Below the pieces are notes generated by a model. The model made no database searches. It had not been told where the DNA came from and was given only the letters and a program-made list of their open reading frames with translations. Shown here in pieces: positions 23,073 to 54,000 of a stretch of 64,000 nt of DNA (the first letter of the stretch is position 1; each line of letters starts with the position of its first letter). A program made the position numbers and the translations under genes. Source of the stretch: Blasia pusilla (Eukaryota); the NCBI GenBank assembly GCA_050084515.1, contig CM114271.1, positions 930,001 through 994,000 on the forward strand, written 5' to 3'.

Positions 23073-23084
23073 ACATACGGCCCT

Positions 23085-27287: not shown

Positions 27288-27506
27288 GGATATAGTGTGG
27301 AGTGCACTCAAAGAACAGTTAGTTCTTTGAGTTGATCCTGTTGCGTTGGGAGTTAGCCTTGGTAGTGAGTAGAGCTCTTGGCTATGGTGGTTCCCGCAAG
27401 CTTCCACTCGAATTCTCCCATCGTGGAGTGGGTTTGGCTCGATTGTATGTGATTCTATACGTGTTTTATGACAATAGTTCTTTCACGGATTTCACTCAAA
27501 GAACTA
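27288..27506 (+). promoter_or_regulatory. E2 TATA-like box, putative transcript 5' end and self-complementary primer-binding site
   Basis: ggatatag lies at ~27288. tagttctttgag (27320-27331) is the exact reverse complement of ctcaaagaacta (27495-27506), which immediately follows the ...ggatttCA end of A. Confidence 0.7.
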
Positions 27507-27617
27507 GAGTAGATCGAGGGTAGCTTCGATCGTGGATCAGTAGGATCTGGTTAGGGCTGATTGTGTACTCAACCGTGGATGTTCGTGGCTTGTGGCCTAT
27601 GTTGGATTTGGAATCTG

Positions 27618-30600: not shown

Positions 30601-33600
30601 TTTGCCGATTGATAGGACGGTAATCTCCACACATCCGCCTATCCGTATAGTTGCCATGCATATCCTTTTAGCAGCATGACAAGTGGCGATGCATACTCTC
30701 CATGCGACAACTCCACTAATCCAGCCTCCAAAAGTTCCAACTTCCTACTCTGAATCAGGTCCCTCTCCATATCACTATATCGGTAGGGACGACAGAAGAT
30801 TGGTGTATCACTAGCCAAATCAATCCGTATACCGGGTCCAACCAGAGAACCCAACTCCTTCATGCTAAAGGCAAAACAACTCCTATAAGCACGTAGGAAG
30901 GCGTGTCAGCGTCGTTTCTCACCTCCCGTAAGCTTGGGCCCAAGTAATGGCTCCCAAGTCTCCTCCTTTGGCATACTAGAGGGAGAGGCGATGCCATTGG
31001 TCGCTACATAACCCCCTCACAAGATGATACACCCTTAGCTACACCATCATCTCGAGCAAATAACTCCTCCACCAAAGCATGAGCAACCAACTCCACATGC
31101 CCAGCCATTACATCCCATTTACTCCAAGGATGCAAAATACTACTCTCTTCACCCCCGATGCCTCTACCGTCCTGGTAGCCATCGAGCTCATTACAAGGGT
31201 GGAAGACCCACGGACATGGTCCGAAGTCGATATTTGCTCGGCCATACCAAGACTCAAAATCCAAGTCAAACAATTCAGGTCCATGGCCTGACCCAACACA
31301 TGACGTCGTGAAGCCTCAAAAATAGAAGCAACCGGCCACGCCGAGAGTAAATCCCATCGCACGCTCTCTCTCATCAGTGTTAGGCTCCACCAACTGTCGC
31401 ACATGAGAATCCCATACAAGCCCCGGACCACCTTCCCTCGTAGGCATGTGACGGGAAAACTCACAAATGTGGGTAGTGCCATCCTAGGTGGCCCACACGG
31501 TTCACCACCGCCATGGGTGACCGATCAATAACCCTCACCACTTGAGAAAGTCGCCAAGATTCAAGATACTATCCATTGTAAAGGCGAGGATCCCGCCATC
31601 GCATCATCCGCTTTCGACGTAGGACCTCCTAGGCAACAAGTTTGTCCACCACAAGCGTGGACGATCTGCACACGAGCCAACTCGCGCTGCATCCAACAAC
31701 ACCGCTGGTCCAATCCAAGACCGCACCTCGTGAACAATCGCCATCATCCGGGTCCTTACATTCTCATGGATCATCAGGCATGTGCTCTAGCTTACATTGG
31801 AACATTTCCGAATGTAAGCTAGAGCACATGCTGATGAACTCAAGATGTCGTAACACCCGTAACATCTCCCAAAACAATCGAGACCTAGGGTCATGTAATC
31901 CCTCACCACGACCAAAGAGACGTATGACTTCGACATGGCCATCCAAAGAATCACCAAATCCACAGACCAACCCTCTCAAGGTCGTGGCGCCCCAACAATG
32001 CAATGTGTGATGGTAAAGCACGCCGGTACCTACGAATAGCCGATGGCGGCAACAACTCAGATATCTCCGCATCAATCGACCAATATGTCGGGATGAGACT
32101 CTCTGGTCGTCTCATCTCGCTCCACATACACGTATCTCCACAGAATACCGGCCTCCAACATCGCCGCCAAACCGGTGCTAATCCCACCAAAGAGATCTAA
32201 CACACAAATGCCCTCCGGCGGATACGCCATACAATGGGTGTAGTATCCAAAGGGGATAACCTAATGGGCAGGAAGTAGGAGTCCGCCGTGGGGCCTCCTC
32301 TTCCTCGTGAGGTATATGACCTCACACCAAGCCTCTGCACTAGGCGTCGCCTCCGCCGTAGTGCACCGCTGAACTCCAAAGTGGCACATCCAACGATGAG
32401 GATGCCACTTGCTGCAAAAATAGGGACCTCCTCTTCCTCCTCATGCGCAGGAGAATCCATAGCGTAAAACATTACCCTCCAAAAAGTCTCCGGCCAAGTG
32501 ACTACTCCACTAAAACTAGCCACAGATGCTAACTTTGTTGGGGAAGACCCTCCTGGTCGAGCCCAGTAAATAAATCTCACAGAACTTGGCTCATACGTCC
32601 ATCCCGGACTGCCAACCTGGTCTATAAGACGTATTTGTCCGCCTAGTAATCCATCTGAAAACCCATCGGGTACACATCGCTCCTCCTACTAGTACATCAT
32701 ACGACTCGGGATGTGACTACATGCAGATACTCCCAACCGGGAGCTATCGTCGCATGATCTGGTCTCAACTAGACAGAAAACTTCTCCCGTGTCATGAATT
32801 GAGACCTATCATTGGCTCCTCCAAGTGATGTTTGAATCTGGAATGGGCAAGGCTCAAGCTCGACCTCCGAATACCCAAACCAATACATGCCGCCTTTCCC
32901 AACATCAAAGGTTGGGCACCGAGTCTAACAAGACTCTATCCGGTCTATACACTGCCCTCTGTAGGACTCACCAATCGGAAGATCCCACCGGTTGTCCAAC
33001 ATACTTACACCAGGTGTAAGCCTCTCACGATCAATGGTGGCCGGGCTCGTAATGCATCCATCTTCGCCGCCGCCGCTAAGTAGCATGGTACTCAATGCTA
33101 CTCCTCGACATAGAGGGTCGCTCCACCGCAACATCCTCATCCACCTCAACACGTGTAGCAAGAATAACACCCCACGTTCACACAATGTGGTCGCTAGCTG
33201 AAATACAGAGCTAAGTCAACTCCTAAAGCCATCGGCTCCGTGGCGAAAACAATGGGGATCCTAACACCGGTTGCCATCCGCACTTAATCGACCTTTGGAT
33301 GTTGTATCCGTGTCTACTACATGCGATGTAGATGCCTCGGTCCCCACTGTCGGCTCAATAGGTCGTGTAGGAACCATGGATGGAGTCCTAAGCACCTCAG
33401 ACAACAAGAATGATGGGAAGCCTAGCTCGCCTCCCAGCCTCACCCCTATGTGGGTCCAACTCACAAGAGCACCACGTAGCTCGACGCCGAGTGGCTCTCT
33501 CTAAGTAATCGCAGGTGATGCCTCAACTTTGTCTTTGCACTCGCCATATAAGAGAGATCATCCCCTCCATAAGAGGTGGAAGTCCTCGCTCCCGAACCCG

Positions 33601-36600
33601 ATCTATCTTTGGATACCGACCATAGTAGCCAATAACCGCTCCAATCTGCTCAATCTCGGCAGCCATAGCGACTCTGTTGTAGTGGTAGGGGTAGCCACCG
33701 TAGGCTCTCCAACCACCTGGTCCACCTCTACCACCCCTACCACCTCGGCCTCTCGGAGCTACTCCACGCGGCCGCGGCCGATCTCAACTCGGATGAAGAT
33801 CAAAGCAACGCTCTCGAGGATGACCGGGTCTCCCGCAATGATCACACCTGAAGTTGGGGCCGATTGAGGCCCATCCTCCAAAGTCCGTCTCCCATCCTCT
33901 TGGGGACAAAACTTCCTAACATGATCACCTCCATATGTCCAACATGATCGCCCTTGCTGGGGGCAGCAAATGAAGGCAATGGTCTCTGCACAAGTGTCCT
34001 CTAGGACTTGACTCGAGGTCGCGTGTACCCCCACGACTCTCACTACTACTACCACCACCACTACTACGAGATTGTGAGGTGGGCGGTGAACACGAGAAGT
34101 AGTAGTTGTATCCCTACATGAATGCGGATGTCACCACTCTCTCCTTCATCATGTTAAGCTCAATCTTCTCGAGATAGAGCAAACACATGGGTCAATGTGG
34201 GTGAATCATCACTCATAAGAGTAGCATCACGCACCCTACGGCGCAAATCTCTGTCCAAGATCCCATACCAAAATCGATGCTCGATCCTCAGTCACCCCTT
34301 GGGTAATCGAAATCAAGCGTCGCATACGCGCGTGTATGCCTCACGAAGACTCTCACCGTCTTTTGCTCAAAGTCCTGAAGATTCCTCAACTTCTCCGTCT
34401 TCACTCCTTGATAGTTCTTCTTCAACCTCTTGAAGAACTCTGCAACCGGGCTAAACGATGGTGGGGCACTAGTACCTCCACTAGTACCTCCACTGGTACC
34501 CCCACTCCGGCTCGTACTCGTACCACTTAGCATCGGGTCGGGCCGGGCATAGTAGGAGCACTACTACCAATACCACCATGGGTGATAGACACATAGCCTG
34601 GAGACCTATATTGTCTCCATGCCTCAATCTAAACAACATGGTCCTTCCTAAACTCATGGTAATCATCCATGGGTGGTCCTTCCAAATCTTTGAAACAACC
34701 CTTCCAAGCCAAGAAGGGTGTAAACAACGTGCGTTCGCAACATCTACATATCACACCACGTATCAAACTCCTGCATGAAGTCCTCCAACTCAATGGTACC
34801 CACAGCACCCAAGTATCGTCGTGGGCCCTTCATGGCCCCATATCCACCGTCCATGTCCCAAATCAATGGAGCGCAACACTCGATAACAACGAGAAGACTC
34901 GGTGTTTGGAACACCTCGTCCTCCTCTTCATCAACCGTCGGAAGTGGAAAAGGTAGCCGATACCTAAATCCACTCCGTGTGAAACCACCATCGTCCGCAC
35001 CACGGTCCCCAACCAGACCACCCGATGACTCGTGATGACCAACGCCGATGCCGCACCACCACCAAATTACCAAGTGACGTCGATGTCGCTATACTATTCT
35101 AGCTCTACTAGCTATGGGTGTAGGCAACCTAACTTGTCATCACCACAAGAAGTCTCCCACAATCTACTCGTCATCCTTCCAGCCTCAGTACCGGTAGCAC
35201 ACAGGAGTAACACTACTCTGGAAATCAGCGTCAACCCTAACAATGGGCACGCAAGCAAGAAGCACGATGGAGGGGATCCAAACACAGGAAATCTAACGAC
35301 AACCCTCCAATCGCAAATGGAAATCAAGGTAACACAATCCACCAAACGTGGTGCCCTCTGAATTCACAAAACCCACCACACAATTCTAACGCAATAGCTA
35401 CTCCTCCGCGGGTCGATGACGTGCTAGTCGAACGCGCAGCATCTGAAAATATCACCTGCATGGAGAGGCTACACCGTACTATGCGCTAGAGGTACATCAA
35501 CCAAAAACCTGAGATGCATAAAGTGCCTAACACATCTCCGAACAGCACCAAATGAGCTACAACAGTATGTACACTGGCATAGTTAAGAACTCGGCAGTTA
35601 AGCGTCCTCCAGGCAGAATAGCCCAAAGATGGGTGACTAGTTATGCAAAACTCAAATCCCAAATCCTGCAAAAATTGCCTCACGCCAAGCAAGCTTGCTT
35701 GCTTGCTCCTTGCTCCTTACTCCGCCTCTCACGCCCACTCGCCCCGAGCTACCACGAGTTGCCTCGAAGCCTCGAAGCCTCGAACCGTCGAGACATGCCC
35801 CGTTCGCCCCGTTCGCCACGCTTCGCCATGCTTCGCTATGGAGAGAGGTCCAACTAGGGCGCCCCCAACGGGATAGGCATCTCCAAAAATGAATGAGTCA
35901 CCAACCAACCAGCCCCTCCGATCCGCTGTCCACCATAGCCAGACCTTGAGCTAGTCCGCGAAATTTCGATCAGAAATTACTTCACAAATACGTGACCAAA
36001 ATCAAATCTGTTTTGATCAGAATTCAATTGACCACCATAGCTATCTCCCCACAAAAACTCACCTACAACCAAGCTCCGTACTCCGAGCTAAAAATCAGAC
36101 AAACTTGCTGTCCATACACCTCTAGAACCGCAAATCCGACAGCGCTTCCGCCAAGTTTCATGCACGCAGAAATCCGCAACGCTCCACGCACTCGAGCAGA
36201 TAGCTTCACATGAGATCACAATACAAGTAGCAATAGGAACCTCTCACCCGATCTGGATGAACTTCAACAGAGCTTCCGCACTCCAAGCTCTCCACATCAA
36301 AAAACTGTCGAACACGAACCAGAATCTTCAATGCTTGATAACTTCCAACTCCCTTGACGAAATCCGGCGATCTATAGCGCGTTGGAAAGCTCTCAGCAAG
36401 GCGCTTCTTTCCCAACCAACCACGCACCTGATTCACACCTCCAACATAGGCAACAAGCCACGAACATCCACGGCTGAGTACACAATAAGCCCTAACCAGA
36501 TCCTACTGATCTACAATCGAAGCTACCATCGATCTACTCCAATTCTTTGAGTGAAATCCGTGGAAGACCTACTGTCATGAAACACGTTTACAATCACATA

Positions 36601-36919
36601 CAATCGAGCCAAACCCACTCCACGATGGGAGAATCTAGGTCGAAGCTTGCGGGAAACACCATAGCCAAGAGCTCTACTCACTACCAAGGCTAACTCTCAA
36701 CGCAATAGGCTCAACTCAAAGAACTGACTGTTCTTTGAGGGCAAGCCACCTTATATCCTTCAACCTAAGAGCGGGCCCTACTGGGAAAGTCACCCCCAAG
36801 TGAGTAACCCCCAACCCTATGTATGGAACCGCATCTCTACCAAGCCACTCCAGTCCTACATAAGGAATGGCCTCTACCAGCACACCATACTCTACGACAT
36901 AATCCGTATGGTTATGACA
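27618..36919 (-). mobile_element. E3: Ty3/Gypsy-DNMT retroelement (family 2), structure A-int-B with no terminal direct repeat
   Basis: TCTG/TCTG TSD (27614-27617, 36920-36923). The host leader of E2 rejoins seamlessly across it. A = 36552-36919, B = 27618-27721. Confidence 0.95.
27900..35030 (-). pseudogene. E3 gag-pol (gag, protease, MTase ~31250-32215, RT, RNase H, integrase, PHD)
   Basis: A 327-aa RT/RNase H ORF (29678-30661) contains YIDD, and an integrase HHCC ORF lies at 28730-29134. The rest is broken by many small indels. Confidence 0.9.
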
Positions 36920-38288
36920 TCTGGTGCGTGGTTGGTTGGGAAAGAAGCGCCTTGCTGAGAACTTTCCAACACGCTTTAGATCGCCGGATTTTGTTAAGGG
37001 AGCTGGAAGTTATCAAGGATTGAAGATTCTGGTTCGTGTTCGACGGTTTTCTGATGTGGAGAGCTTGGAGTGCGGAAGTTGTGTTGAAGTTCATCCAGAT
37101 TGGATGAAAGGTTCTTGTTGCTACTTGTATTGTGATTTCACGTGAAGCTATCTGCTTGAGTGTGTGGAGCGTTGTGGATTTCTGCGTGCATGAATCTGGG
37201 CGGAAGCACTGTCGGATTTGCGATTCTGGAGGTGTATGGACAGCAAGTTTGTCTGATTTGTAGCTCAAAGTACAGAGCTTGGTTGTAGCTGATTTTTTGT
37301 GGGGAGATAGCTATGGTGGTCAATTGAATTTTGGTTGAAACAGATTCAATTTTGGTCAAGGGTTTGTGGAGTAATTGCTGATCGAAATTTCACGGACTAG
37401 CTTAAGGTCTGGCTAAGGTGGACAGCAGATCAGAGGGGCTGGTTGGTTGGTGAATCGTTCGTTGTTGGAGACGCCTATCCCATTGGGGGCGCCCTGGTTG
37501 GGCCTCTCTCCATAGCAAAGCATGGCGAACGGGGCATGTCTCGGCGTTTTGAGGCTTTGAGGCAACTCGTGGTAGTTCGGGGCGAGTGGGCATGAGAGGC
37601 GGAGCAAGGAGCAAACAAGCAAGCTTGCTTGCTTGAGCATGAGGCAATTTTTGCAGGATTTGTGATTTGAGTGTTGCATAACTCGTCATCCATCTTTGGG
37701 CTATTCTGCCTGGAAGACGCTTAACTGTTGAGTTCTTAACTATGCTAGTGTACACAATGGTGTAGCTCATTTGGTTTTGTTTGGAGATTCGTTAAGCACT
37801 TTATGCATCTCAAGTTTTTGGTTGATGGACCTCTAGCGCATAGTATGGTGTAGCCTCTCCATGCAGGTGATATTTTCAGGTGCTGCGAGTCCGACTAGCA
37901 CGTCATCGACCCACAGCGGAGTAGCTATTGCGTTAGAATTGTGTGGTGGGTTCTATGGATTCCGGGGGCGCCACGTTTGGTGGATTGTGTTACCTTGATT
38001 TCCATTTGCGATTGGAGGGTTGTCGTTGGACTTCCTGTGTTTGGATCCCCTCCATCGTTGCTTCTTGCTTGCGCGCCCATTGTTAGGGTTGAAGCTGATT
38101 TCCAGAGTAGTGTTACTCCTGTGTGCTATCGGTAGTGAGGCTGGAGTGATGACCAGTAGACCGTGGGAGGCTTCTTGTGGTGTTGACAGATTAGGTTGCC
38201 TACACCCATAGCTCGTAGAGCTAGAGTAGTACAACGACATCAACGTCACTTGGTTACTTAGTGGTGGTAATTTGGTGGTGGTGCGGCA

Positions 38289-39680
38289 TTGGCTTTGGTC
38301 ATTACGGAGCTGTCTGGTGGTCTGGTTGGGGACCGTGGTGCAGACAATGGTGGTTTCATACGGAGTGGATTGAGGTATCGGCTACCTTTTCCACTTCCGA
38401 AGGTTGATGAAGAGGAAGACGAGAGTGTTCCAAACACCGAGTTTTCTACGTTGTTATCGAGTGTTGCAGCTCCATTGATTTGGGACATGGACGGGATATA
38501 TGGGGCCATGAAGGGCCCACGAAAATACTCGGGTGCAGTGGGCACCACTGAGTTGGAGGACTTCATGCAGGAGTTTGATACGTGGTGTGATATGCAGATG
38601 TTGCGGAACGCCACGTTGTTTACACCCTTCTTGGCTTGGAAGGGGTTGTTTCAAAGACTTGAGGGACCACCCATGGATGATTACCATGATTTTAGGAAGG
38701 ACCATGTTGCTGAGATTGAGGCATGGAGACAATATTGGTCTCTAGGCTATGTGTCTGTCACCCATGGTGGTATTGGTAGTAGTGCTCCTACTATGCCAGC
38801 CAGCCCGACGTTGAGTGGTACGAGTACGAGCCGGAGTGGGGGTACTAGTGGAGGTACCCATGGAGGTACCAGTGGGAACTCCCACTGGTACCTCTTATGA
38901 GTGATGATTCACCCACATTGACCCATGTGTTTGCTCTATCTGAGAAGATTGAGCTTACCATGGTGAAGGAGAGAGTGGTGACATCCGCATTCAGTAGGGA
39001 TACAACTACTACTTCTCGTGTTCAGCAGCCCACCTCACAATCTCATAGTAGTGGTGGTGGTAGTAGTAGTGGGAGTCGTGGGGGGTACACACGACCTCAG
39101 TCATGTCCTAGAGGAACACTTGCGTAGAGACCATTGCCTTCATTTGCTGCCCCGCAGCAAGGACAGTCATGTTGGACATGTGGAGGTGATCATGTTAGGA
39201 GTTTTTATCCCCAAGAGGATGGGAGACGGACTTTGGAGGATGGGCCTCAATCGGCCCCAACTCAGTGTGATCATTGCGGGAGACCCGGTCATCCTCGAGA
39301 GCGTTGCTTTGATCTTCATCCAGAGTTGAGATCAGGCCGCGGCCGCGGTGGAGTAGCTCCAAGAGGCCGAGGTGGTAGGGGTGGTAGAGGTGGACCAGTG
39401 GTTGGAGAGCCTACGGTGGCTACCCCTACCACTACGACAGAGTCAGCTATGGCTGCCAAGATTGAGCGATTGGAGCGGTTGGCTTCTATGGCTGGTATCC
39501 AGCATAGATCAGGTTCGGGAGCAGGGGCTTCCACCTCTTATGGAGAGGATGATCTCTCTTATATGGCGAGTGCAGCACAGATTGAGGCATCACCTGCAGT
39601 TACGAGAGGAGCCACTCGAGCGTCAGAGCAACGTGGTGCTACAGTGGAGTTGGACCCACAGAGGAGTGAGGCTGGGAGTT
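38289..39680 (+). pseudogene. E2 gag (capsid, two zinc knuckles, RGG tract), internally deleted at ~38880
   Basis: ELEDFMQEFDTWCD; CWTCGGDH; CDHCGRPGHPRERC; GRGRGGVAPRGRGGRGGRGG. Confidence 0.85.
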
Positions 39681-40119
39681 AGGCTAGGCTTCCCCAGTCA
39701 TTCTTGTTGTCTGAGGTGCTTAGGATTCTATCCATGGTTCCTACGCAGCCTATTGAGCCGACACTGGGGACTGAGGCATCTACATCGTTTGAAATAGACA
39801 CGGATGCAGCATCTACTGCAGTATTGCGGATGGCAACTTCACTGTTGGGATCCCCATTATTTTCGGCCACGGAGCTGATGGCTTTAGGAGTTGACTTAGC
39901 TCATGTATTTCAGCTAGCAGCCACGTTGTGTGAACGTGGGGGTGTTACTCCTACACCTACTGAGGTGGATGAGGGTGTTGCGGTGGAGCGACCCTCTAGG
40001 TCAGGTGTAGCATTGAGTACCAGTGCTACTTGGCAGGCAGCAGCGGCGAAGATGGATGCATTACCAGCCCGGCCAGCCATTGATCGTGAGAGGCTTACAC
40101 CTGGTGTATGTATGTTGGA

Positions 40120-40380
40120 CAACCGGAGTGGGATGTTCCGATTGGTGAGTCCTACAGGACAAGTGTATAGACCAGATATAGTCTTGTTAGACTCAGGTGC
40201 CCAACCTTTGATGTTGGGAAAGGCGGCATGTATTGGTTTGGGTATTCGGAGGTTAGAGCTTGAGCCTTGCCCATTCCAGATTCAAACATCACGTGGAGGA
40301 GCCAATGATAGGTCTCAATTCATGACACTGGAGAAGTTTTATGTACAGTTGAGACCAGATCATGCGATTGATAGCTCCCG
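40120..40380 (+). pseudogene. E2 aspartic protease (N-terminal part; C-terminus deleted)
   Basis: VLLDSGAQP active-site motif at ~40180-40206. Confidence 0.85.
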
Positions 40381-40775
40381 GTATGAGCCAAGTTCCTGTG
40401 AGATTTATTTATGGGGCTCGACCAGGAGGGTCTTCCCCAACGATATTAGCATTTATGGCTGGTTTTAGTGGAGTAGTCACTTGGCCAAGAGATTTTTTGG
40501 AGGGTAATGTTTCTGCTATGGATTTTCCTATGGATGAGGAGGTAGAGGAGGTCCCTAGTTTTGCAGCAGTGGCATCCTCATCGTTGGATGTGCCACTTTG
40601 GAGTTCAGGCGGTGCACTACGGCACGAGGCTGATTGCCTAGTGCAGGAGGCTTGGTGTGAGGCTATTATACCTCACGAGGAAGAGGAGGCCCCACGGCGG
40701 ACTCCTACTTCTGGTCTAGTTGGGTTATCCCCTTTGGATACTAAACCCATTGTATGGCAGTATCCGCCGGATGGC

Positions 40776-41670
40776 ATTTGTGTGTTAGATCTCTTTGGTG
40801 GGATAAGCACTGGTTTGGCTGTAGTGTTGCAGGCCGGTATTCCTGTGTGGAGATATGTCTATGTGGAGCGAGATGAGACAGCCCAGAGAGTCTCATCCCG
40901 ACATATTGGTCAGTTGATGCGGAGATATCCTCATTTTTTTCCGCCATCAGCTATTCGTGGGTACCAGCGTGTTTTGCCGTCACACATTGCATTGTTGGGG
41001 GCGCAGGACCTTGAGAGGGTTGGTCCTGTGGATTTGGTGATTTCTGGATGGCCATGTCATGGTCATACAAGTGCTGGTCGTGGAGAGGGTTACACGACCC
41101 TAGGTCTCAATTATTTTGGGAGATGTTACGGGTGTTACGACATCTTCAGGTTCATAAGGCACATGCTCCAGCTTACATTCTGGAGAATGTTCCATTGTTG
41201 GGTGACACTCGGACCAGGATGATGGCGAGTGTTCATGAGGTGCAGTCTTGGATTGGACCAGCGGTGTTGTTGGATGTAGCGCGAGTTAGCTCGCGTGCAC
41301 ATTGTCCACGCTTGTGGTGGACAAACTTGTTGCCTAGGGAGGTTCTACGTCGAGCATATGATGCAGTGCAGCGGGATCCTTGCCTTACAGTGGATAGTAT
41401 CTTGGATACTGGGCGACTTTCTCAGGTGGTGAGGGTTATTGATCGGTCACCCATGGTAGTGGTGAACGGTGTGGGCCAGCCTAGGATGGCACTACCCATA
41501 TTTGTGAGTTTTCCCTCGTCACATGCCTACAGGGAAGGTGGTCCCGGGCTTGTATGGGATTCTCATGTGCGACAGTTGGTGGAGCCTAACGTTGATGTTA
41601 GAGAGCGTGCGATGGGATTTCCTACTGGCGTGACAGCGGTTGCTTCCATTTCTGAGGCTTCACGACGTCA
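40776..41670 (+). pseudogene. E2 DNMT3-like C5 cytosine methyltransferase domain within pol
   Basis: Motif I VLDLFGGI, II YVERD, IV DLVISGWPC, VI YILENV, VIII AHCPRLWWTNL and IX RERAMGFP occur in canonical order. There is one frameshift at ~41088. Motif X (LGQAMD) is deleted here but present in E1, E3 and E4. Confidence 0.92.
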
Positions 41671-41975
41671 TGGGTCTTCTACCCCTTGTGATGAGCTCGA
41701 TGGCTACCGGGACGGTAGAGGCATCGGCTGGGGGCGAGGAGAGATGTATTTTGCATCCTTGGAGTAAATGGGATGTAATGGCTGGGCATGTGGAGTTGGT
41801 TGCTCATGTTGGTGAAGGAGTTATTTGCTCAGATGATGGTGTAGCTAAGGGTGTACCATCTTGTGAGGGGGTTGCGTAGCAGCCAATGGTATCGTCCTCT
41901 CCCTCTAGTGTGCCAGTGGAGGAGACTTAGGAGCCATTACTTGGGCCCAAGCTTACGGGAGGTGAGAAACGATGC

Positions 41976-44853
41976 TTGACACAGTTCCTACGTCCTTATA
42001 GGAGTTTTTTTGCCTTTAGCATGAAGGAGTTGGGTGCTCTGGTTGGACCTGGTATACGGATTGATTTGGCTAGTGATACGCCAATCTTCCGTCGTCCCTA
42101 CCGATATAGTGATATGGAGAGGGACCTGATTCAGAGTAGGACGTTGGACCTTTTGGAGGCTGGATTAGTGGAGTTATCGCATGGAGAGTATGCATCAGCC
42201 ACTATCATGCCTGCTAAAAAGGATATGCATGGCAACTACACGGATATGCGGATGTGTGGAGATTACCGTCCTATCAATCGGCAAACCAAGGCCGATAGGT
42301 ATGCCATGCCTACACTTGAGGAGTTCTTTGATGTGGTGGGATAGGCAAAGATTTTCAGTATTTTGGATCTTCGAGCAGGATACCATCAATTTCCGATTCG
42401 GGAGAGTGACAAGGCCAAGACAGTATTTTGGGGTGTCAACTCTCATGGCAAGGATTTTTTGTACCAGTGGAAATTCTTACCCTTTGGGTTGAAGAATGCA
42501 CCTGCCGAGTTTCAGAGAGTGATGGACAGGATCCTAGCAGGGTTGGATTTTGTTCGGTGTTACATTGATGATATCTTGGTGTTCAGTAACACAGTGGAGA
42601 AGCATCAGATACATTTGCAGATTGTGTTTGAGCGGTTGAAAGCTCATGGTCTACGTTTGCATCCAGGAAAGTGTAAGTTCTTCCATGAGGATGTTGAGTA
42701 CTTGGGTCATGTGATCTATCTAGGTGGTTTGGGAGTTCAACAAGCAAAGGTGGAGGCTATTGCACTTATTCCGCGTCCGGTAGATATGAGTAGAGTTCAG
42801 GCATTCATGGGATTGGCAAACTACTATCGGAGGTATGTGAAGGGATTTAGTGCTATGGCAAAGCCTTTGAACCAATTGCTGAAATCAGATCAATAGTGGC
42901 ACTGGGGAGATGATCAGGAGAGAGCTTTTGAAGAGCTCAAGGCCCAGTTGGTGGCGGCGCCTATCTTGAGGAGACCTATCAGAGGGCGCCCATTTCAGTT
43001 ACACACTGATTGGAGTAGGTTGGGACTTGGAGCGGTGTTGACACAACATGATGATGAGCACATGGAGTTTCTGGTGGCCTATGCAAGTCGTTCGAATAAT
43101 GCAACGGAGTCGCGCTATAGTTCATATGAGGGAGAGTGCTTGGCAGTAGTGTGGGCTGTGGCACACTTTAGGTGTTACTTGTTTGGCAAACAGTTTACCC
43201 TTGTTACTGATCTCTAGCCGCTCAAGTGGTTGATGGAGTCTGACAAGCTTACAGGGAAGCTTGCACGGTGGGCTCTTATCTTACAAGAGTATGACTTCCA
43301 GGTGGTACATAGACATGGAGTTGCCAACCTTGATGCTGATGGGTTGAGTAGGAACTCATGTACTAGCCAAGAGGATACAACTGGGGCTATATGGCATGGC
43401 GAGGTTGATGAGGAGATGGTTCTAGGTTGGCATGCATCCGCCTTTTTATGTTGGTTAGGGGTGGACTCTAGTATGGAGGACCACATGATATCTTACTCTA
43501 GATGGCCAACCTTCAAATCCTAAGGTTGGAGATGGTGGTACGGATCAGCGTGATATTCATGATGATGCGTTGGTGTTGGAGTTCCTACGGACCAGTAGGG
43601 TGCCAGGCATAGTGAGTGCCAAGGAGCGAGACCGTGTTCTTCAACGTGCTAAGAGGTATCGATTGGAGGGAACACATATTCTCCGTGTGTGGGAGGATGG
43701 TAGAGTACGAGTAGTGCCGCATTTGGCTGAGAGAGAGCGCATTGTGCGATATGCCCATGAGGAGTTGGGACATTTTGGGGTAAAGCGTACGTATAGCTTA
43801 CTCCTTGGTCACTATTGGAGTGTGGACTTTGCGGGACCGTTACCGTTGAGTGTACGACATCATCGATATGTGTTGGTGATGGTGGAGCACTTCTCCAAGT
43901 GGATTAAGTTGGTGGCATTTCCTGACAAGGCAAGTGAGGGAACGGCATATGCATTTCTTGATAGAGTGCTTAGTCATTTTGGTGCACGAGCTGAAGTGCT
44001 GACCGACGAGGGTACAAAGTTTCAGGGTGAGTTTAAGGTCTTGTGTAACAAGGCGTTGATTGATCATCGGACCACGTCTCGAGATCATCCAGAGGCGGAT
44101 GGTTTGGCTGAGCGTGTGGTTCAGACGGTGAAGAGAGCATTGCGCAAGTATGGCCTACAGAAGGGGCATCTTGGAGACTGGGATATTCAGTTGCCATGGT
44201 TAGCCATGAGGTATAGGTTCAGTCGCCAAGCATCCTTGGCTTCCTTCTCACCTTATTTCCTGTTATATGGCCGAGATCTAGACTTTCCAGCAACAATTCG
44301 TCGGGAGTCTAGTAAGGTGGTGAACCTTGATGACCCAGAGATGTGGATGAGAGTGTGTTCTCAGCGGGCAGAGCTCTTTCGGAGAGTTATGCCAACCGCC
44401 TCGGAGAATCTTGCCATTGCTCAACACAGGGATACGTTGCGGTATGCAACTATTCGGGGTGGAGGTTATCAACCATTGATTCGTAGGTTCCATGTGGGGG
44501 ACTATGTCTATTTGCAGCAGATTGCACCGACAATGTTGGATGTAACGGCAGGCCGCACTATTTTAAGAGTGCGCGAGGTGATAGCTTCTGGAGTTCTCAT
44601 GTTGGAGGGTCCTGATGGAGTTGTTTGGAAGGACCGTGTGCGTAATTATGCGCCATGTCATCTTCCAAATGTGGATGATACTATTGACCCAAGCTTAGCC
44701 ATGATACGTGCTAGCTTGAGGTGCATGTTGTGTGGTAACGGAGCCCGTATGTTGGTGTGTGATCGATATTCTAGGGGTTGGCACATGATGTGTTTGATTC
44801 CATGTATGGATGTTGTTCCTACTGGAAGGTGGGTTTGTCCTCGATGTACTTAG
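41976..44853 (+). pseudogene. E2 RT, RNase H, DDE integrase and C-terminal PHD finger
   Basis: RMCGDYRPIN, LPFGLKNAPAEFQR, YIDD; HTDWS and YEGECLAVVWA; VDFAGP, LTDEG and DGLAER; CMLC...CDR...WHMMC...WVCPRC-stop. A few in-frame stops and a deletion in the HHCC region. Confidence 0.93.
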
Positions 44854-47800
44854 GAGAGGTAGATGACTTGATCTTTGCATGATATGGATTACAGATGTGC
44901 GACTAACGATAGAGCAACCAAGCACCCGACCTTCTGATTCGTGCACCCACGAAGGTGTATAGCATGTAGTAGATGTATAGGGCTACCTGGGAGTTAGAGG
45001 GACGTAACCGCCAGTTAGGGGGGCGAGTTGTGGTACACTTGTATTTTTGGATGCTCTCGTCTATGTTATGTAGGTATGTGAGTATGGTATGTCAGCGATG
45101 TATGTTGTATGACGATGTGGATTCCCACGACAATTATCATGACCATACAGATTATGTTGTAGAGTATAGTGTGCTAGTAGAGGCCATACCTTATGTAGGG
45201 CCGTAGTGTCTAGGTAGAGATGCGGTTTCATACATAGGGCTGGGGGTTACTCAGTTGAGCGTGACTTTTCCAGTAGGGCCCGCTCTTAGGTTGGAGGATA
45301 TAGTGTGGAGTGCACTCAAAGAACAGTTAGTTCTTTGAGTTGAGCCTGTTGCGTTGGGAGTTAGCCTTGGTAGTGAGTAGAGCTCTTGGCTATGGTGGTT
45401 CCCGCAAGCTTCCACCCGGATTCTCCCATCGTGGAGTGGGTTTGGCTCGATTGTATGTGATTCTATACCTGTTTTATGACATTAGATCTTTCACGGATTT
45501 TAGTTGTGGTACACTTGTGTTTGTGCATGCTCTCGTCTATGTTATGTAGGTATGTGAGTATGGTATGTCAACGATGTATGTTGTATGACGATGTGGATTC
45601 GCACGACAAACTAAATTCTAATCTTTTGGGATCCAATTGAAAATATCTAAAAACGAGTTTAATGGCCTGTGTGATGCCAAAAAAAAAAGTTCTTTAAAGA
45701 CAAAGTTGAAATGAAATGGTACTTTTTAATGCATATATAGCTAATGGAAGTTTTATAATCCTCGAACGAGGAGTTAGTGAAGAATTGTCGAATGACATTT
45801 GCATTAGAGAGCATTTAGCCACTCTAAGGCATAGAATAATGGCCTCAATCGGATATTGCACCCACTGGATGCCGTATGAGATCGGGCTGTAGCAACCTTA
45901 TCAGACCAACTACTAGTAGTGGCTAGACGTACATGAGCGATGGTGATGTCCATTTGGTTGCTTTTTGGCTCTGGACCTTCGACAAGTCCAACGTAGCCCC
46001 CCATGTATGGCACATTAGGTGCACACCAATGAAGTAAGTAGGATTCGTGACATGAGCATCAATTTTGTACAAAATTTTATCCGCATATATAGAGATTTTT
46101 CTTCTTGCATCATTTGGCTCGTGTCATTGGTGTGTTGAATAAATTAAATGAGATTTTAATAAATTTCTATAAGGTTTTTGGTAAATTATAAGCTGAGGAA
46201 AAAATGTTGGGGCTCAATTCTAAATCACACTGGCAATGCTTCCATAGATTGCAAGATCTTTGCGGCTCCATTGCGAGCCAACGACAAGTCATCGCGACTA
46301 CTTGTAATAAAATGGAACTTTGTAGCCGCAAACTATGAGTCAGATTCACATTCTTTGCGAGTCAGCTGGGAGTGCAACACTTGCAACGTTGTGGCTGCAT
46401 TGTGACTATGATGCACCATAAAATTAAAATTTTATGTCACAAAATTGAAGGGAAAAAAGAAAAGATGGCAATAAAGTGATAATAAGACTTCATAATAAGT
46501 CTTGGAAGATTTTGAACCCCTCAAATTACATAACATTCATTACCATATCTCTATTTTAGAATTTTGAAAATGAACAGAATTTCTATTATCATTTATAATA
46601 TTCATTATCTACAAGAATTCTAATATATTTACTTCTTCCCAAATAAAGGAGAAATATTCACTTAAAAAAACCTTTAAAAAGTCGTTCTAGAACACATGAG
46701 AGGAACGCAGTCACCTACTCAACGAACACGTGTCCAACAGTGAAGCTCCCGCGGTTCCCCGAAAACCACGTAGTACAGATATCACAGTCATATTGTGACA
46801 ACTGCCACATGTCAGGACGATCTCATCTCAACCGCACTGGCACCGGCACCTGTCACATGTCCACGTTCGTGCAAAGACGTGCCAACCTACCCCTGCATGT
46901 CCCTACAGGTGGCCCGATCCTGCCGGCTCTCAAATAGTAGGTGAGATCTGTGCCGTTGGTGAAACGAACGTGGGAGACAGGGGTTCTTACCCCGTTGGGC
47001 GTGTAAACTTTGGACTTTGGAGGGAAAGGTACGTACTCGTGGGTAATTAAAAGCACCACCTTGTGGATAAATAACTATTACCAACTTACCAGCATCGGTA
47101 AGCCGTATGTGTCTAGGCCCTAAAAACACCGACAAAAGAAAAAAAATATCTAATAAAAATAATTAATAATTACGAGAGTAATTGATTCCATTTAATGCAT
47201 TCAACTCATGTACTCGTAAGTGTGACCACTAAGTCACTCGTTACGTTTCAGCACTAAACACGTTTCTAATTAAGATGATTGGTACCTTTAAATCATAATA
47301 AATAATTGTTGTTTGTCTCTCGTATCCTCTTAGGTCACATTAGGTTTTCATGATAAGCATTCATCAGGAATTATATCACACGATTACAACCTCTACTTAT
47401 AATTGTTTTTCTTTTATTTCTTTATTTCTTGGAGCGTATTTATGTGGATTCCATTCACCATTTCTTTTCACATATGTGAAAATTTTCCCCTCTCAAGGGT
47501 TACATACGGTTTCATATTTGATGGACATCACAAGTTCATTCATGTAGGAGTAGGTAGATGGATATGCCGTCCTATTATTTTAGAATTATATTTTAATGTA
47601 AAATTTATAAACCATTTTAAATCTTAATTGTAGATGGTGTGCAAGACATGAAAAATATCCATGAATTAATTTTTTACCTAAAATATCTTTCCAAAATTTT
47701 TGGATTATTTATTTTCATATTTTTATCAAGTATTTATTTACAACAAATTTCACAAATTCAACTCCAAAATTAGAACATGTCCAATGTTTTACACATGATG

Positions 47801-48018: not shown

Positions 48019-51000
48019 TGTCGTGCTTAATCCACATCATCATACAACATACATCGTTGACATACCATATTCACATACATACATAACATAAACGAGAGCA
48101 TCCACAAACACAAGTGTACCACAACTGAAATCCGTGAAAGACCTACTGTCATAAAACACATATAGAATCACATACAATCGAGCCAAACCCACTCCACGAT
48201 GGGAGAATCTAGATCGAAGCTTGAGGGAAACACCATAGCCAAGAGCTCTACTCACTACCAAGGCTAACTCCCAACGCAATAGGCTCAACTCAAAGAACTG
48301 ACTGTTCTTTGAGTGCACTCCACCTTATATCCTCCAACCTAAGAGCGGGCCCTACTGAAAAGTCACCTTCAATTGAGTAACCCCCAACCCTATGTATGAA
48401 ATCGCATCTCTACCTAGAAACCACGACCCTACATAAGGTATGGCCTCTACTAGCACACTATACTCTACGACATAATCCGTATGGTCATGACATACCGTCT
48501 GTCACGTTAAAAGCCGGAATGTCATCGAATCCACATCATCATACAACATACATCGCTGACATACCATACTCACATACCTACATAACATAGACGAGAGCAA
48601 CCAAAAACACAAGTGTACCACAACTCGCCCCCCTAATTGGCGGTTAGGTCCCTCTAACTCCCAGGTAGCCCTATACATCTACTACATGCTATACACCTTC
48701 TTGGGTGCACGAATCAGAAGGCCGAGTGCTAGGTTGCCCCATCGTTAGTCGCACATCTGTAATCCATATCATGCAAAGATCAAGTCATCTATCCCTCCCA
48801 AGTACATCGAGGACAAACCCACCTTCCAGTAGGAACAACATCCATACGTGGAGTCAAATACATCATGTGCCAATCCCTAGAACATCGATCACACACCAAC
48901 ATACAGGCTGCGTTACCAGCAGACCCACACAACATACACCTCAAGCTAGCACGTATCATGGCTAAGCTTGGGTCAACAATACCATCCACATTTGGAAGAT
49001 GATATGGCGCACAATTACGCACATGGTCCTTCCAAAAAACTCCATCACGACCCTCCAACATGAGAACTCTAGAAGCTAACACTCGCAAGCGACTCGTAAA
49101 ATAGTGCGGCATGCCGTCACATCCAACGTTGTCGGGCAATCGCTGCAAATAGACATAGTCCCCACATGGAACCTACGAATCGATGGTCGATAACCTCCAC
49201 CCGAATGGTTGCATACCGCAACGTATCCCCTGTGTTGAGCAATGGCAAGATTCTCAAAGGTCAGTTGGCATAACTCTCCGAAAGAGCTCGCCCTCGAGAA
49301 CACACTCTCATCCATATCTCTCGGGTCATCAAGGTTCACCACCTCACTAGACTCGACTTAATTGCGCCGGCAAGTCCGGATCTCGGCCGTATAACAGTAA
49401 AAATAAGGTGAGAAGGAAGCCAAGGATGCTTGGCGATCGAACCTATACCCCATGACTAACCATGGCAATTGAATATCCCGGTCTCCAAGATGCCCCTTCA
49501 GAGGCCGGACTTGCGCAATGCCCTCTTCACCAAAATCCGAACCACACGCTCAGCAACCCAAACCATCGCCTCTGGATGATCTCGAGACGTGGTCCGATGA
49601 TCAATCAACGCCTTGTCACACAAGACCTGAAACTCACCCAAACTCTCTACCCTGGTCGGTCGCCAGCTTCACCTGGTGCACCAAAATGACTAAGCACTCT
49701 ATCAAGAAACGCATACGCCGTTCCTCACTTGCCTTGTCCGTAATGCCACCAACTCAATCCACTTGGAGAAGTGCTCCACCATCACCAACACATATCGATG
49801 ATGTCGCATAAACCAACGGTAATGGTCCCGCAAAGTCCGCACTCCAACGGTAACCCAACCCCATAATAGGCAAGGGGTGTAACTGTGGTGTAGGGGCATT
49901 GAATGATGCCCTCACCCGGTCACAAACCATACAACATGACACCAATCGCCTGCACTGAGTATGCATGCCACGCCACCAATACTGACCAAGGAGTAAGCTA
50001 TACGTACGCTTTACCCCAAAATGTCCCAACTCCTCATGGGCATATCGCACAATGTGCTCTCTCTGAGCCAAATGCAGCACTACTCGTACTCTACCACCCT
50101 CCCACATACGGAGAATATGTGTTCCCTCCAATCGTTACCTCTTAGCACGTTGAAGAACACGGTCTCGCTCCTTGGCACTCACTATGCTTGGCACCCTACT
50201 GGTCCGTAGGAACTCCATTACCAAGGCATCATCATGAATATCACGCTGATCCGTACCACCATCTCCAACCTTAGGATCTGAAGGCTGGCCATCTACCCTC
50301 TGACTAGAGTAAGATATTATGTGGTCCTCCATACTAGAGTCCACCCCTAACCAATATAAAAAGGCGGATGCATGCCAACCTGGAACTGTCTCCTCATCAA
50401 CCTTGCCATGCCATATAGCCCCAGTTGTATCCTCTTGGCTAGTACATGGGTTCCTACTCAACCCATCAGCATCAAGGTTGGCAACTCCATGTCTATGTAC
50501 CACCTGGAAGTCATACTCCTGTAAGATAAGAGCCCACCGTGCAAGCTTCCCTGTAAGCTTGTCAGACTCCATCAACCACTTGAGCGGCTGGTGATCAGTA
50601 ACAAGGGTAAAATGTGTGCCAAACAAGTAACATCTAAAGTGTGCCACAGCCCACACTACTGCCAAGCACTCTCCCTCATATGAACTATAGCGCGACTCCG
50701 TTGCATTATTCGAACGACTTGCATAGGCCACCTGAAACTCCATGTGCTCATCATCATGTTGTGTCAACACCGCTCCAAGTCCCAACCTACTCCAATCAGT
50801 GTGTAACTGAAATGGGCACCCTCTGATAGGTCTCCTCAAGATAGGCTCCGCCACCAACTGGGCCTTGAGCTCTACAAAAGCTCTCTCCTGATCATCTCCC
50901 CAGTGCCACTCTTGATCTGATTTCAGCAATTGGTTCAAAGGCTTTGCCATAGCACTAAATCCCTTCACATACCTCCGATAGTAGTTCGCCAATCCCATGA

Positions 51001-54000
51001 ATGCCTGAACTCTACTCACATCTACCGGACGCGGAATAAGTGCAATAGCCTCCACCTTTGCTTGTTGAACTCCCAACCACCTGGATAGATCACATGACCC
51101 GAGTACTCAACATCCTCATGGAAGAACTTACACTTTCTTGGATGCAAACGTAGACCATGAGCTTTCAACCGCTCAAACACCATCTGCAAATGTATCTGAT
51201 GCTCCTCCACGGTGTTACTGAACACCAAGATGTCATCAATGTAACACCGAACAAAATCCAACCCTGCAAGAATCCTGTCCATCACTCTCTGAAACTCGGC
51301 AGGAGCATTCTTCAACCCAAAGAGTAAGAATTTCCACTGGTACAAACAATCCTTGCCATGAGAGTTGACACCCCAAAATGTTGTCTTGGCCTTGTCACTC
51401 TCCCGAATCGGCAATTTATGGTATCCTGCCCGAAGATCCAAAGTACTGAAAATCTTTGCCTGTCTCACCACATCAATGATCTCCTTAGGTGTAGCCATGG
51501 CATACCTATCGGCCTTGGTTTGCCGATTGATAGGACGATAATCTCCACACATCCGCATATCCGTGTAGTTGCCATGCATATCTGTTTTAGCAGGCATGAT
51601 AGTGGCTGATGCATACTCTCCATGCGATAACTCCACTAATCCACCCTCCAAAGGGTCCAACGTCCTACTCTGAATCAGGTCCCTATCCATATTATTATAT
51701 CGGTAGGGATAACGGAAGATTGGCGTATCACTAGCCAAATCAATCCATATACCGGTTCCAACCAGAGAACCCAACTCCTTCATGCTAAAGGCAAAAAAAC
51801 TCCTATTAGCACGTAGGAACTGTGTCAAGTGTCGTTTCTCACCTCCCGTAAGCTTGGGCCCAAGTAATGGCTCCTAAGTCTCCTCCACTGGCACACTAGA
51901 GGGAGAGAACGATGCCATTGGCTGCTACGCAACCCCCTCACAAGATGATACACCCTTAGCTACACCATCATCTGAGCAAATAACTCCTCCACCAGCATGA
52001 GCAACCAACTCCACATGCCCAGCGATTACATCCCATTTACTCCAAAATACTACTCTCCTCGCCCTCAGCCAATGCCTCTACCATCCCGGGAGCCATCGAG
52101 CTCATTACAAGGGGTGGAAGATCCAGAGACATAGTCCGAAGTCGACGATGCTTGGCCATACCAAGACTCAAAATCCAAGTCAAACAATTCAGGTCCATGG
52201 CCTGACCCAACACCTGACGTCGTGAAGCCTAAGAAATGGAAGCAACCGTTGTCACACCAGTAGCAAAATCCCATCGCACGCTCTCTCTCATCAGCGTTAG
52301 GCTCCACCAACTGTCGCACATGAGAATCCCATACAAGCCTGGAACCACCTTCCCTATATGCATGTGACGAGGGAAAACTCATAAATGTGGGTAGTGCCAT
52401 CCTAGGCTGGCCCACACGGTTCACCACTGCCATGGATGACCGATCAATAACCCTCACCACCGAGAAAGTCGCCCAAAGATATCAAGATACTATCCACTGT
52501 AAGGCAAGGATCCCGCTGCACTGCATCATATGCTCGACATAGAACCTCCCTAGGCAACAAGTTTGTCCACCACAAGCGTGGACAATGTGCACGCGAGCCA
52601 ACTCGTGCTGCATCCAACAACACCGCTGGTGCAATCCAAGACCGCACCTCATGAACACTCGCCATCATCCGGGTCCGAGTGTCACCCAACAATGGAACAT
52701 TCTCCAGAATGTAAGCTAGAGCACGTGCCTGATGAATCTGAAGATGTCGTAACATCCGTAACATCTCCCAAAACAATCGAGACCTAGGGTCGTGTAATCC
52801 CTCACCACGACGAGCACGTGTATGACCCTGACATGGCCATCTAGCAATCACCAAATCCACAGGACCAACCCTCTCAAGGTCCTGCGCCCCCAACAATGCA
52901 ATGTGTGATGGCAAAGCATGCTGGTACCCACGAATAGCTGATGGCGGCAACAACTCAAGATATCTCCGCATCAACTGACCAATATGTCGGGATGAGACTC
53001 TCTGGGCCGTCTCATCTCGCTCCACATACACGTATCTTTGCACAGAATACCGCCCGCATAACACTCTGACCAAACCAAAGTGCTAATCCCACCAAAGAGA
53101 TCTAACACACAAATGCCCTCCGCGGATATCGCCATATAATGGGTGTAGTATCCAAAGGGTATAACCTAATGGACCAGAAGTAGGAGTCCGTGGGGCCTCC
53201 TCTTCCTCGTGAGGTATAATGACCTCACACCAAGCCTCTGCACTAGGCGATCAGCCTCCTGCCGTAGTGCACCGCATGAACTCCAAAGTGGCACATCCAA
53301 CGATGAGGATGCCACTGCTGCAAAAATAGGGACCTCCTCTACCTCCTCATGCACAGGAGAATCCATAGTAGAAACATTACCCTCCAAAAAATCTGCTGGC
53401 CAAGTGACTACTCCACTAAAACTAGCCACAGATGCTAACACTGTTGGGGAAGACCCTCTTGGTCGAGCCCCATAAATAAATCTCACAGGAACTTGGCTCA
53501 TACGTTCATCCCTGGACTGCAAACCAGGTCTATAAGACGTTGTCTCAGTCTAGTAATCCATCTGAAAACCCATCGGGTACAATACTGCTCCTCCAACTAG
53601 TACATCATACGACTCGACTCCGATGTGACTACGCAGAGATACTCCCAACCGGAGCTATCGATCGCATGAGCTGGTCTCAACTGTACAGAAAACTTCTCTC
53701 GTGTCATGAATCGAGACCTATCATTGGCTCCTCCAAGTGATGTTTGAATCTGGAATGGGCAAGGCTCAAGCTCTGACCTCCGAATACCCAAACCAATACA
53801 TGCCGCCTTTCCCAACATCAAAGGTTGGGCACTTGAGTCTAACAAGACTCTATCTGGTCTATACACCTGTCCTGTAGGACTCACCAATTGGAATATCCCA
53901 CTCCGGTTGTCCAACATACATACACCAGGTGTAAGCCTCTCACGATCAATGGCTGGCCGGGCTCGTAATACATCCATCTTCGCCGCTGCTGCCTGCCAAG

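Follow-up and report, generated by a model that had tools for sequence, protein, structure and literature searches.

Retrotransposons that carry a methyltransferase of their own invert the usual view of methylation as host defence, and in the passages of the literature available to us such elements are described from dinoflagellates and a charophyte alga. The 64-kb stretch of Blasia pusilla DNA analysed here (contig CM114271.1, positions 930,001 to 994,000; hereafter the window) raises the question of whether the cytosine methyltransferase motifs lying among its Gypsy-type sequences belong to the elements themselves and, if they do, from where the domain came. The first-pass annotation stated that DNMT-carrying retrotransposons had been reported in Symbiodinium and Klebsormidium, which the available text of PMC5890265 bears out, and suggested that a DNMT3-like domain inside the Gypsy polyprotein might extend such elements to a land-plant genome.

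Element structure and repeat layout

Stop-to-stop open reading frames (ORFs) and self-comparison resolved four related Gypsy-type retroelements, E1 to E4, in the window (Table 1). E2, E3 and E4 share 87-95% DNA identity with one another, and we treat E1 as a second family because it is only ~70% identical to these three. The polyprotein order is gag (CCHC), protease, DNMT3-like C5-methyltransferase, reverse transcriptase (RT), RNase H, integrase and PHD finger. In E2, the gag region is colinear with residues 1-702 of the Marchantia protein P0008 (tblastn), the RT-RNase H stretch scores 106.9 bits for RVT_1 and 117.2 bits for RT_RNaseH_2 in Pfam, and the integrase scores 41.3 bits for rve and 27.5 bits for Integrase_H2C2. 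The best solved RT for a second Marchantia relative, P0001, is that of Ty3 (4ol8, 7q5b; E 4e-48). A ~145-bp deletion at 40381 removed the C-terminal part of the E2 protease, and the H2C2 module of E2 is partly deleted at 43815. In E1, gag abuts the DNMT directly, since the protease is deleted along with the N-terminal DNMT half (residues 453-975 of P0008 have no counterpart).

Table 1 Coordinates of the elements and of their parts, counted from the first letter of the window.
Feature	Position	Strand	Remarks
E1	~4.1-11.7 kb	+	~70% nt identity to E2-E4
E1 DNMT C-terminal half, motifs VI-X with stops	7501..8369	+	motif scan, tblastn
E2 target duplication AACT	27123-27126, repeated at 45609-45612		4 bp, perfect
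E2 5' end: repeat A1 and 5' leader piece X	27127..27617	+	begins TGTCATG
E2 repeat A1	27127-27492	+	97.0% identical to A2 (45134-45500)
E2 gag region, three reading frames	38271..39682	+	CCHC knuckle in ORF 39128-39682
E2 protease (LLDSGA; DSGA motif)	39683..40468	+	motif aligned to Asp_protease_2 stretch of K. nitens P0118
E2 DNMT3-like C5-methyltransferase domain	40776..41670	+	ORFs, Pfam, tblastn, motif scan
E2 reverse transcriptase (YIDD, ORF 42345-42896) and RNase H	41931..43523	+	Pfam
E2 integrase: H2C2, rve core, C-terminal PHD finger (~44722-44850)	43489..44853	+	
E2 3' end B1/A2/B2	45026..45608	+	B1 45026-45133, A2 45134-45500, B2 45502-45608
E3	27618..36919	-	related element nested in E2, TCTG duplication on both flanks
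E3 parts	A 36552-36919, X 36430-36552, coding region, single B 27618-27724	-	
E3 DNMT region	~32215-31250	-	motif scan, tblastn
E4, full-length copy	48019..57338	-	all repeat modules present
E4 repeats	A1 56972-57338, B1 48526-48625, A2 48126-48492, B2 48019-48126	-	
E4 DNMT region	~53115-52160	-	six motifs, three frames, one stop
E4 PHD ORF	48789-49172	-	PHD 29.6 bits

Rather than lying beside E2, E3 is nested within it: TCTG is duplicated at 27614-27617 and 36920-36923, the insertion point falls between X and the remaining leader of E2, and the uninterrupted site is visible in E4. We rejected the alternative that E2 and E3 face each other and are bounded by inverted terminal repeats, since the target duplications place E3 inside E2. 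Elsewhere in the window, 13 ORFs measuring 110 aa or more lie in the interval 11800-27100.

The elements start with TGTCATG in repeat A (367 bp) and end with CACGACA in repeat B (108 bp). E2 and E4 are laid out as A1, leader X, coding region, purine run, B1, 2 nt, A2 and B2, and E3 as A..B only. The two B repeats of E2 are 95% identical, B2 terminates in CACGACA and the purine run stands immediately upstream of B1; in E4, A1 and A2 are 97.5% identical. Related metagenome loci extend this picture, as the A-coding-B-A-B layout was found in three of the ten long loci checked (L039, L066 and L014), the other seven not containing both element ends. Perfect 4-bp duplications (CATA, AAGG and TCTC) flank the elements at L039, L066 and L014, so that the target duplication is perfect in five of six elements, E4 matching in three of four bases (AAAT/AAAA), around repeats ordered A..B-A-B rather than LTR..LTR. 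No intact copy was found among 80 related metagenome loci, where plus-strand ORFs extend to 545 aa at most and so fall short of 600 aa.

The methyltransferase domain within pol

A three-frame scan of E2 recovered motif I (DLFGG) at 40788, motif IV (WPC, within GWPC) at 41049, motif VI (ENV) at 41183, motif VIII (WWTN) at 41312 and motif IX (ERAMGF) at 41603; ENV lies in a different frame, with a frameshift near 41090-41165, and motif X is missing at a ~87-bp deletion (41671/41672). E4 holds six of six motifs, from 53102 down to 52210, spread across three frames. In E3, motif I lies at 32197 and WPC, which is out of frame beside a stop, at 31941; motifs VIII, IX and X are also there amid many frameshifts, a deletion follows ENV, and the motif count is five or six. 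E1 retains only motifs VI, VIII, IX and X (7624-8115). Overall, motifs I, IV, VI, VIII, IX and X stand in standard order and are intact in relatives, and the PC motif and motif I are each readable in three of the four copies. Motif scan, tblastn and Pfam thus confirm the earlier placement of C5-methyltransferase motifs in all four elements. Of the catalytic PC and ENV also noted there, E2 and E4 show both; in E3, WPC is off frame, and E1 has no PC. The DNMT frame is broken in all four copies of the window and none is intact; therefore, none of them could make the enzyme.

The Pfam DNA_methylase check proposed with the annotation gave a score of 29.7 bits against PF00145 for the E4 ORF at 52444-53082 on the minus strand (E 5.9e-7; cut-off 22), and 16.1 bits, under the same cut-off, for the E2 ORF at 41015-41767. 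Six of the eight window ORFs scanned, the E4 ORF being one of the eight, were without any Pfam family match. PF00145 exceeded its cut-off in 10 of 12 relatives tested, with relatives scoring 27.7-58.4 bits, and the best relatives match the E4 ORF at E 1e-91. Judged by these scores, the methyltransferase match is far beyond chance.

The position of the domain was read from relatives. The Marchantia proteins P0008 (gag-PR-DNMT) and P0001 (PR-DNMT-RT-RH) are colinear on E2 and E4 in tblastn, P0001 and P0002 each join DNMT, RVT_1 and RNase H in that order in one protein, and the 2327-aa protein P0206 reads CCHC-PR-DNMT-RT-RH-INT. Colinearity on E2 and E4 and the single proteins of relatives uphold the placement between protease and RT. 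A frame continuous with the rest of pol is found in the single DNMT-RT proteins of the Marchantia relatives and in none of the window copies.

Resemblance to DNMT3 and the integrase PHD finger

A phmmer search of P0001 against all PDB chains returned 45 sequences at E≤0.01, in which the only methyltransferases were DNMT3A, DNMT3B and DNMT3C (best E 2.3e-6), the remainder being RTs. A family profile of 13 members ranked DNMT3A highest in the PDB (68.5 bits, E 4e-18), with DNMT3B at 58 and DNMT3C at 56 bits, against 33.7 bits for tobacco DRM, 26.8 for DRM2, 26 for M.HhaI and 21 for DNMT2; no DNMT1 or chromomethylase chain appeared in this search at E≤1. In the profile alignment, motifs I-VIII precede IX-X, which is the unpermuted order. 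For the relative P0009, an AlphaFold model based on a 40-sequence alignment (pLDDT 84.2, pTM 0.83) retrieved DNMT3A, DNMT3B and DNMT3C throughout the best 49 Foldseek ranks against the PDB (best E 4.6e-18), with a TM of ~0.8 on the target. The profile scores, the motif order and the Foldseek ranks agree with the first reading of the domain as DNMT3-like and unpermuted rather than DRM, MET1 or CMT. An ESM Atlas look-up of the P0008 domain gave generic DNA_methylase clusters only, and the K. nitens copies are placed in a divergent Dnmt3 clade in the text available of PMC5890265. The DNMT3-like assignment of the window domain, which we regard as supported, rests on the PDB ranking, together with the predicted fold, and on the 2018 paper (PMC5890265).

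The element domain appears to share the catalytic-domain fold and the unpermuted motif order with host DNMT3A and DNMT3B of animals and with plant DNMT3, and its motif VIII stretch aligns with that of DNMT3A. Unlike host DNMT3A and DNMT3B, it is embedded in a retrotransposon Pol and is only ~20% identical to the human enzymes. It also differs from them in its accessory domains, as Pfam found neither PWWP nor ADD in the window ORFs and relatives, where the sole reader domain is the PHD finger of the integrase. This finger scores 29.6 bits in E4 and 22.5 bits in E2, just below the cut-off of 24. Its best solved look-alikes are those of CHD4, KMT2C/D, ATXR5, KDM5A/B PHD1, PHF21A, BAZ2A, UHRF1 and AIRE, PHD fingers that mostly bind unmethylated H3K4 or the unmodified H3 tail. 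Chromoviruses likewise have a chromatin-reader domain fused at the integrase C-terminus; their reader is a chromodomain, whereas that of the window elements is a PHD finger, for which a targeting role may be proposed by analogy.

Relatives and domain order

The E4 ORF matched 40 longer proteins at E≤1e-3, the best being Marchantia polymorpha 'hypothetical proteins' (74% identity), with Calypogeia fissa and Sphagnum next. When 1.84 billion cluster representatives were scanned in full by HMMER with the 13-member family profile, 6346 matched at E≤1e-3, 1446 at E≤1e-10 and 392 at E≤1e-30, the last figure marking a large lineage. Among the 150 matches listed, every score was at least 203 bits, and many of these proteins are 1000-3456 aa long. 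A word-based profile search of longer proteins returned 17 matches, bryophyte wherever named; K. nitens was recovered through the representative scan and cluster look-ups and not through the word-based search.

DNMT and RT occur together in 86 of 202 family proteins, with RT before DNMT in 73 and DNMT before RT in 13; DNMT is followed by integrase in 24 and stands alone in 92. The order seen in the window, DNMT before RT, is found among land plants in Marchantia polymorpha, Riccia sorocarpa, Calypogeia fissa and four Sphagnum species, and among algae in four Closterium strains and Klebsormidium nitens (GAQ93235.1). These names, which cover three genera of liverworts besides the four Sphagnum species, support the suggested extension to land plants. 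No tracheophyte was found among the named matches, which is weak evidence because most matches carry no species name; the accessible part of PMC6338049 describes such transposons as absent from land plants 'such as tracheophytes'.

The opposite order, RT before DNMT, has one named member, the 'pol' of Scenedesmus sp. PABB004 (KAF8056149.1). In a Pfam scan of 20 long representatives, RVT_1 was present in 18 of 20 and a PHD finger after the integrase in 16 of 20, and RT and RNase H stood ahead of the DNMT in 17 of the 18 with RT. This chlorophyte-type sister group has in common with the window elements the DNMT (at least 203 bits), a Gypsy RT-RH and an H2C2-rve integrase with C-terminal PHD; it differs in placing the DNMT after RNase H and before the integrase, whereas the window elements have it before RT. 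Judged by these counts, the sister group is much larger than the window-type group, with Scenedesmus as its one named member.

A FastTree phylogeny of 170 DNMT domains has a branch with support of 99 that separates 121 rows, in which all 96 with known order are RT-first, and every DNMT-before-RT row lies on the opposite side. The window ORF falls in a clade of 16 rows (support 100) with Marchantia and Calypogeia, and the small K. nitens group, with the order protease-DNMT in Pfam, sits near the base of the tree with weak support (85-88). An RT-RH tree of 58 rows likewise splits the two domain orders at one branch (support 98). Both trees were built without DNMT-less Gypsy outgroups and do not by themselves establish monophyly of the whole group; a single domain-order change within one element lineage would fit both.

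Kinship with KnitGypsy-Dnmt3

Pfam finds a CCHC knuckle, an aspartyl protease and a DNMT in the K. nitens protein GAQ93235.1 (P0118). Its alignment to Marchantia P0008 spans 569 columns, begins at the active site of the protease, ends at motif X and shows 29% identity (E 1e-54). KnitGypsy-Dnmt3, the K. nitens element, has the same gag-protease-DNMT3-like order, a Gypsy pol and A-coding-B-A-B repeats; the closest named relatives of the window copies are liverworts and peat mosses rather than this charophyte, from which they stand apart at ~29% identity. In view of the colinearity between the K. nitens and Marchantia proteins and of the shared A-coding-B-A-B layout, we assign the window elements to the same lineage as KnitGypsy-Dnmt3, as neither a fresh capture nor a parallel case. 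The integrase PHD, the 4-bp duplications and the TG..CA ends of the window elements are absent from the passages available of PMC5890265, where the A-coding region-B-A-B layout is given in the figure legends, there for the DIRS case.

This lineage is known on the basis of K. nitens in the accessible parts of six sources (PMC5890265, PMC12344493, PMC6453930, PMC11982613, PMC6338049, 10.64898/2026.05.21.726589), the last of which, a 2026 preprint, names it 'streptophytes (Gypsy-DNMT3)'. We found no literature report of DNMT retrotransposons in liverworts or mosses, although the supplements of PMC5890265 and PMC12344493 may contain some. On the evidence of the relatives, a known lineage is now placed in bryophytes, including Marchantia polymorpha, and linked to a very large sister group, apparently green-algal, in which the domains are ordered differently. 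Also added are the recurrent integrase PHD and the integrase-type insertion of a split-repeat element. SymbioDIRS-Dnmt3 of Symbiodinium, as far as the text available of PMC5890265 goes, likewise has a DNMT3-like domain in Pol and A-coding-B-A-B repeats; it uses a tyrosine recombinase and a DIRS RT in place of the DDE integrase, Ty3-like RT and 4-bp duplications of the window elements.

Selection and transcription

We estimated dN/dS by the Nei-Gojobori method on codons mapped through tblastn pieces. Between E1 and E2/E3/E4, the ratio was 0.17-0.22 for DNMT (bootstrap CI 0.08-0.39), 0.14-0.18 for gag and 0.12-0.13 for RT-RH, values obtained at a dS of ~1.3-1.7, near saturation, and on codons first filtered for a local identity of 40% or more with the reference, a step that depresses dN in every domain. 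The DNMT of KnitGypsy-Dnmt3 has a comparable Ka/Ks of <0.2 in the available text of PMC5890265. Among E2, E3 and E4, the ratio was 0.58-0.90 for DNMT and 0.54-0.89 for RT-RH, as post-insertion decay would give. These ratios support the view that, between the two families, the DNMT has been under purifying selection similar to that on gag and RT. The first-pass argument that retention in two families implies selection stands at this level, and selection is not visible among the close copies.

Three raw RNA-seq runs labelled with the species of the best DNA match, taken to be the window's own, were mapped on 36000-46500, with ~1900-2300 reads per run. Nearly all reads are 95-99% alike to the window, and 38-55 of ~2000 per run reach 99%. 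In all three runs, sense reads reached a mean depth of 7-48 in the DNMT region and of 30-96 across the RT-to-integrase stretch, against a depth of 0 in 45828-46500, a flank outside the elements. Strand bias is strong, the reads being sense to E2 and to the 5' repeat of E3 if, as we assumed, the library is of the usual stranded type. Overhanging read ends at 40381, 41671/2 and 43815 continue as in E3 and E4, those at 41672 running into motif X. Because of the 95-99% identity and of the read ends that run into motif X, we conclude that close relatives with an undeleted DNMT are transcribed, and not the E2 copy. As a possible trace of methylation, CpG depletion was uninformative, showing no difference between the elements (obs/exp 0.60-0.77) and the rest of the window (0.47-0.77).

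Proposed function and alternative explanations

We consider it likely that the four window elements are dead members of the Gypsy-DNMT3 lineage, belonging to two families, and that in this lineage the methyltransferase would self-mark new DNA and the PHD finger would tether the integrase. The enzyme would be made as part of Pol and travel with RT and integrase, adding de novo 5-methylcytosine to the element's own new DNA, be it cDNA or a fresh insertion. The PHD finger may tie the integrase to histone H3 tails, probably those with unmethylated K4, by analogy with the chromodomain of chromoviruses. With self-methylation and tethering combined, a new copy would thus enter the genome pre-marked and arrive in chromatin where harm is small.

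A different function has to be weighed against self-marking, in which the domain was kept without methylating DNA, either to bind nucleic acids or serve as a scaffold in the manner of DNMT3L, or to methylate RNA in the manner of DNMT2. In yeast, no DNA methylation was obtained with the K. nitens domain, a result for which the authors' word is inconclusive, and the same authors raised RNA methylation for a LINE case (PMC5890265, from the passages available). This reading is weakened by the catalytic residues, as 90% or more of the rows in the 40-sequence alignment retain the Cys of PC and the E and N of ENV, the Gln after the motif IV Cys is present in all 40 sequences, and the 13-member family alignment shows no variation at the Trp, Pro and Gln of motif IV. 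Furthermore, the family profile scores DNMT2 at only 21 bits against 68.5 for DNMT3A, and purifying selection on the DNMT is like that on RT; we regard the loss of DNA methylation as improbable, while giving it some weight.

The origin of the domain could also be more recent than we propose, a bryophyte Gypsy element having taken up a host DNMT3 independently, in parallel to Klebsormidium. In the available text of PMC5890265, de Mendoza et al. (2018) stress independent and recurrent DNMT captures by retrotransposons, and host DNMT3 is kept in bryophytes. Such a capture is, however, hard to reconcile with the colinearity of the K. nitens protein and the Marchantia relative over protease, linker and DNMT, with the unusual repeat layout common to the K. 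nitens type and the window elements, or with Closterium proteins of the same domain order. The DNMT tree and the RT-RH tree split the two orders once each, and the 392 representatives at E≤1e-30 to the family profile tell against it as well; we consider this origin very improbable. Finally, the region is crowded with broken elements nested in one another, and no window ORF joins DNMT to RT, as might be seen if a fragment of a host methyltransferase lay in or beside retrotransposon debris through an assembly or nesting artefact and were no part of pol. The domain nevertheless holds the same position in four copies of two families, and single predicted DNMT-RT proteins in Marchantia and others, with both domains in 86 family proteins, refute this account, to which we attach practically no credence. 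Self-marking by an inherited enzyme, with integrase tethering, is the reading that we retain, and members in Marchantia polymorpha would make the role of the enzyme testable in a tractable land plant.

A broader reading, which we put forward tentatively and hold to be rather doubtful, is that the lineage is an ancient 'epigenetic toolkit' retroelement of green plants and algae that inserts, maybe, from circular cDNA. The toolkit would pair a writer of the DNMT3 type with a PHD reader borne by the integrase. On this model, the classical LTR would correspond to B+A, and the integrase would cut a near-palindromic B-end/A-start site within it; a 2-LTR circle opened at the B/A site would yield A-coding-B-A-B, as in E2, E4, L039, L066 and L014, and a 1-LTR circle opened at the same site would yield A-coding-B, as in E3. 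Opening of a circle at the B/A junction would explain how DIRS-like split repeats come to flank a Gypsy element with a DDE integrase. Two observations bear on the B+A reading of the LTR, namely the purine run just before B1 and the TG..CA ends on both the A and the B modules.

Repeat organization of the elements

We show that the Gypsy-type copy E3 lies nested within the leader of a second copy, E2, flanked by a perfect 4-bp duplication, TCTG. E2 and E4 are organized as A-coding-B-A-B, where A and B denote the terminal repeat modules, and E3 is organized as A-coding-B, with a single A and a single B. Either E3 lost A2-B through recombination between B1 and B2, or its layout represents a second integrated form. 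Junctions between the modules were examined in the window and in three long metagenome loci holding both ends of related elements (L039, L066 and L014). The internal junction of B end and A start reads CACGACA, two nucleotides, TGTCATG, a near-palindrome resembling two element ends joined together. The junction of A end and B start reads CA-GT-TG, and a purine run, AGGGGGG, immediately precedes B1 on its 5' side. Relative to E3, E4 and transcribed relatives, E2 carries four internal deletions.

Coordinates of element features in the window
Feature	Position	Size or detail
E3, nested insertion	27618-36919	within leader of E2 (27127-45608)
Junction sites examined	45100-45140, 45495-45510, 48490-48530	
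E2 deletion, gag	38892	~228 bp
E2 deletion, protease	40381	~145 bp
E2 deletion, DNMT motif X	41671	~87 bp
E2 deletion, integrase zinc finger	43815	~120 bp
PHD finger, integrase C-terminus, E2	44722-44850	
PHD finger, integrase C-terminus, E4	48789-49172	
PHD finger, integrase C-terminus, E1	11174-11485	
Short pieces resembling repeat B end and E1 terminal region	3651-3691, 11698-11737, 57455-57495, 58158-58703	
Tandem pair, 5' side of E1	4161-4754	~290-bp units, 84% identical

Integrase PHD finger and related proteins

The PHD finger at the integrase C-terminus is present in both families of the window and in 16 of the 20 distant relatives scanned; its top look-alikes among solved structures are CHD4, KMT2C/D, ATXR5, KDM5A/B PHD1 and PHF21A. 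Among related proteins, P0093, one of the relatives with RT before DNMT, has a G-patch domain between DNMT and integrase. For P0004/P0225, the family member P0004 shares 94% identity with a Sphagnum troendelagicum protein across 55% of its length.

Surrounding sequence

On sequence likeness, the short pieces around E1 and beyond E4 appear to be additional fragments of the same superfamily; in the terminal region of E1, the stretch 4530-4909 matches 58298-58703 in inverted orientation at ~67% identity. In the non-Gypsy stretch, two minus-strand ORFs (17098-17709 and 20792-21277) have similar, hydrophobic, membrane-like translations. Positions 1258-1989 and 18175-18978 form an inverted repeat of 66% identity.
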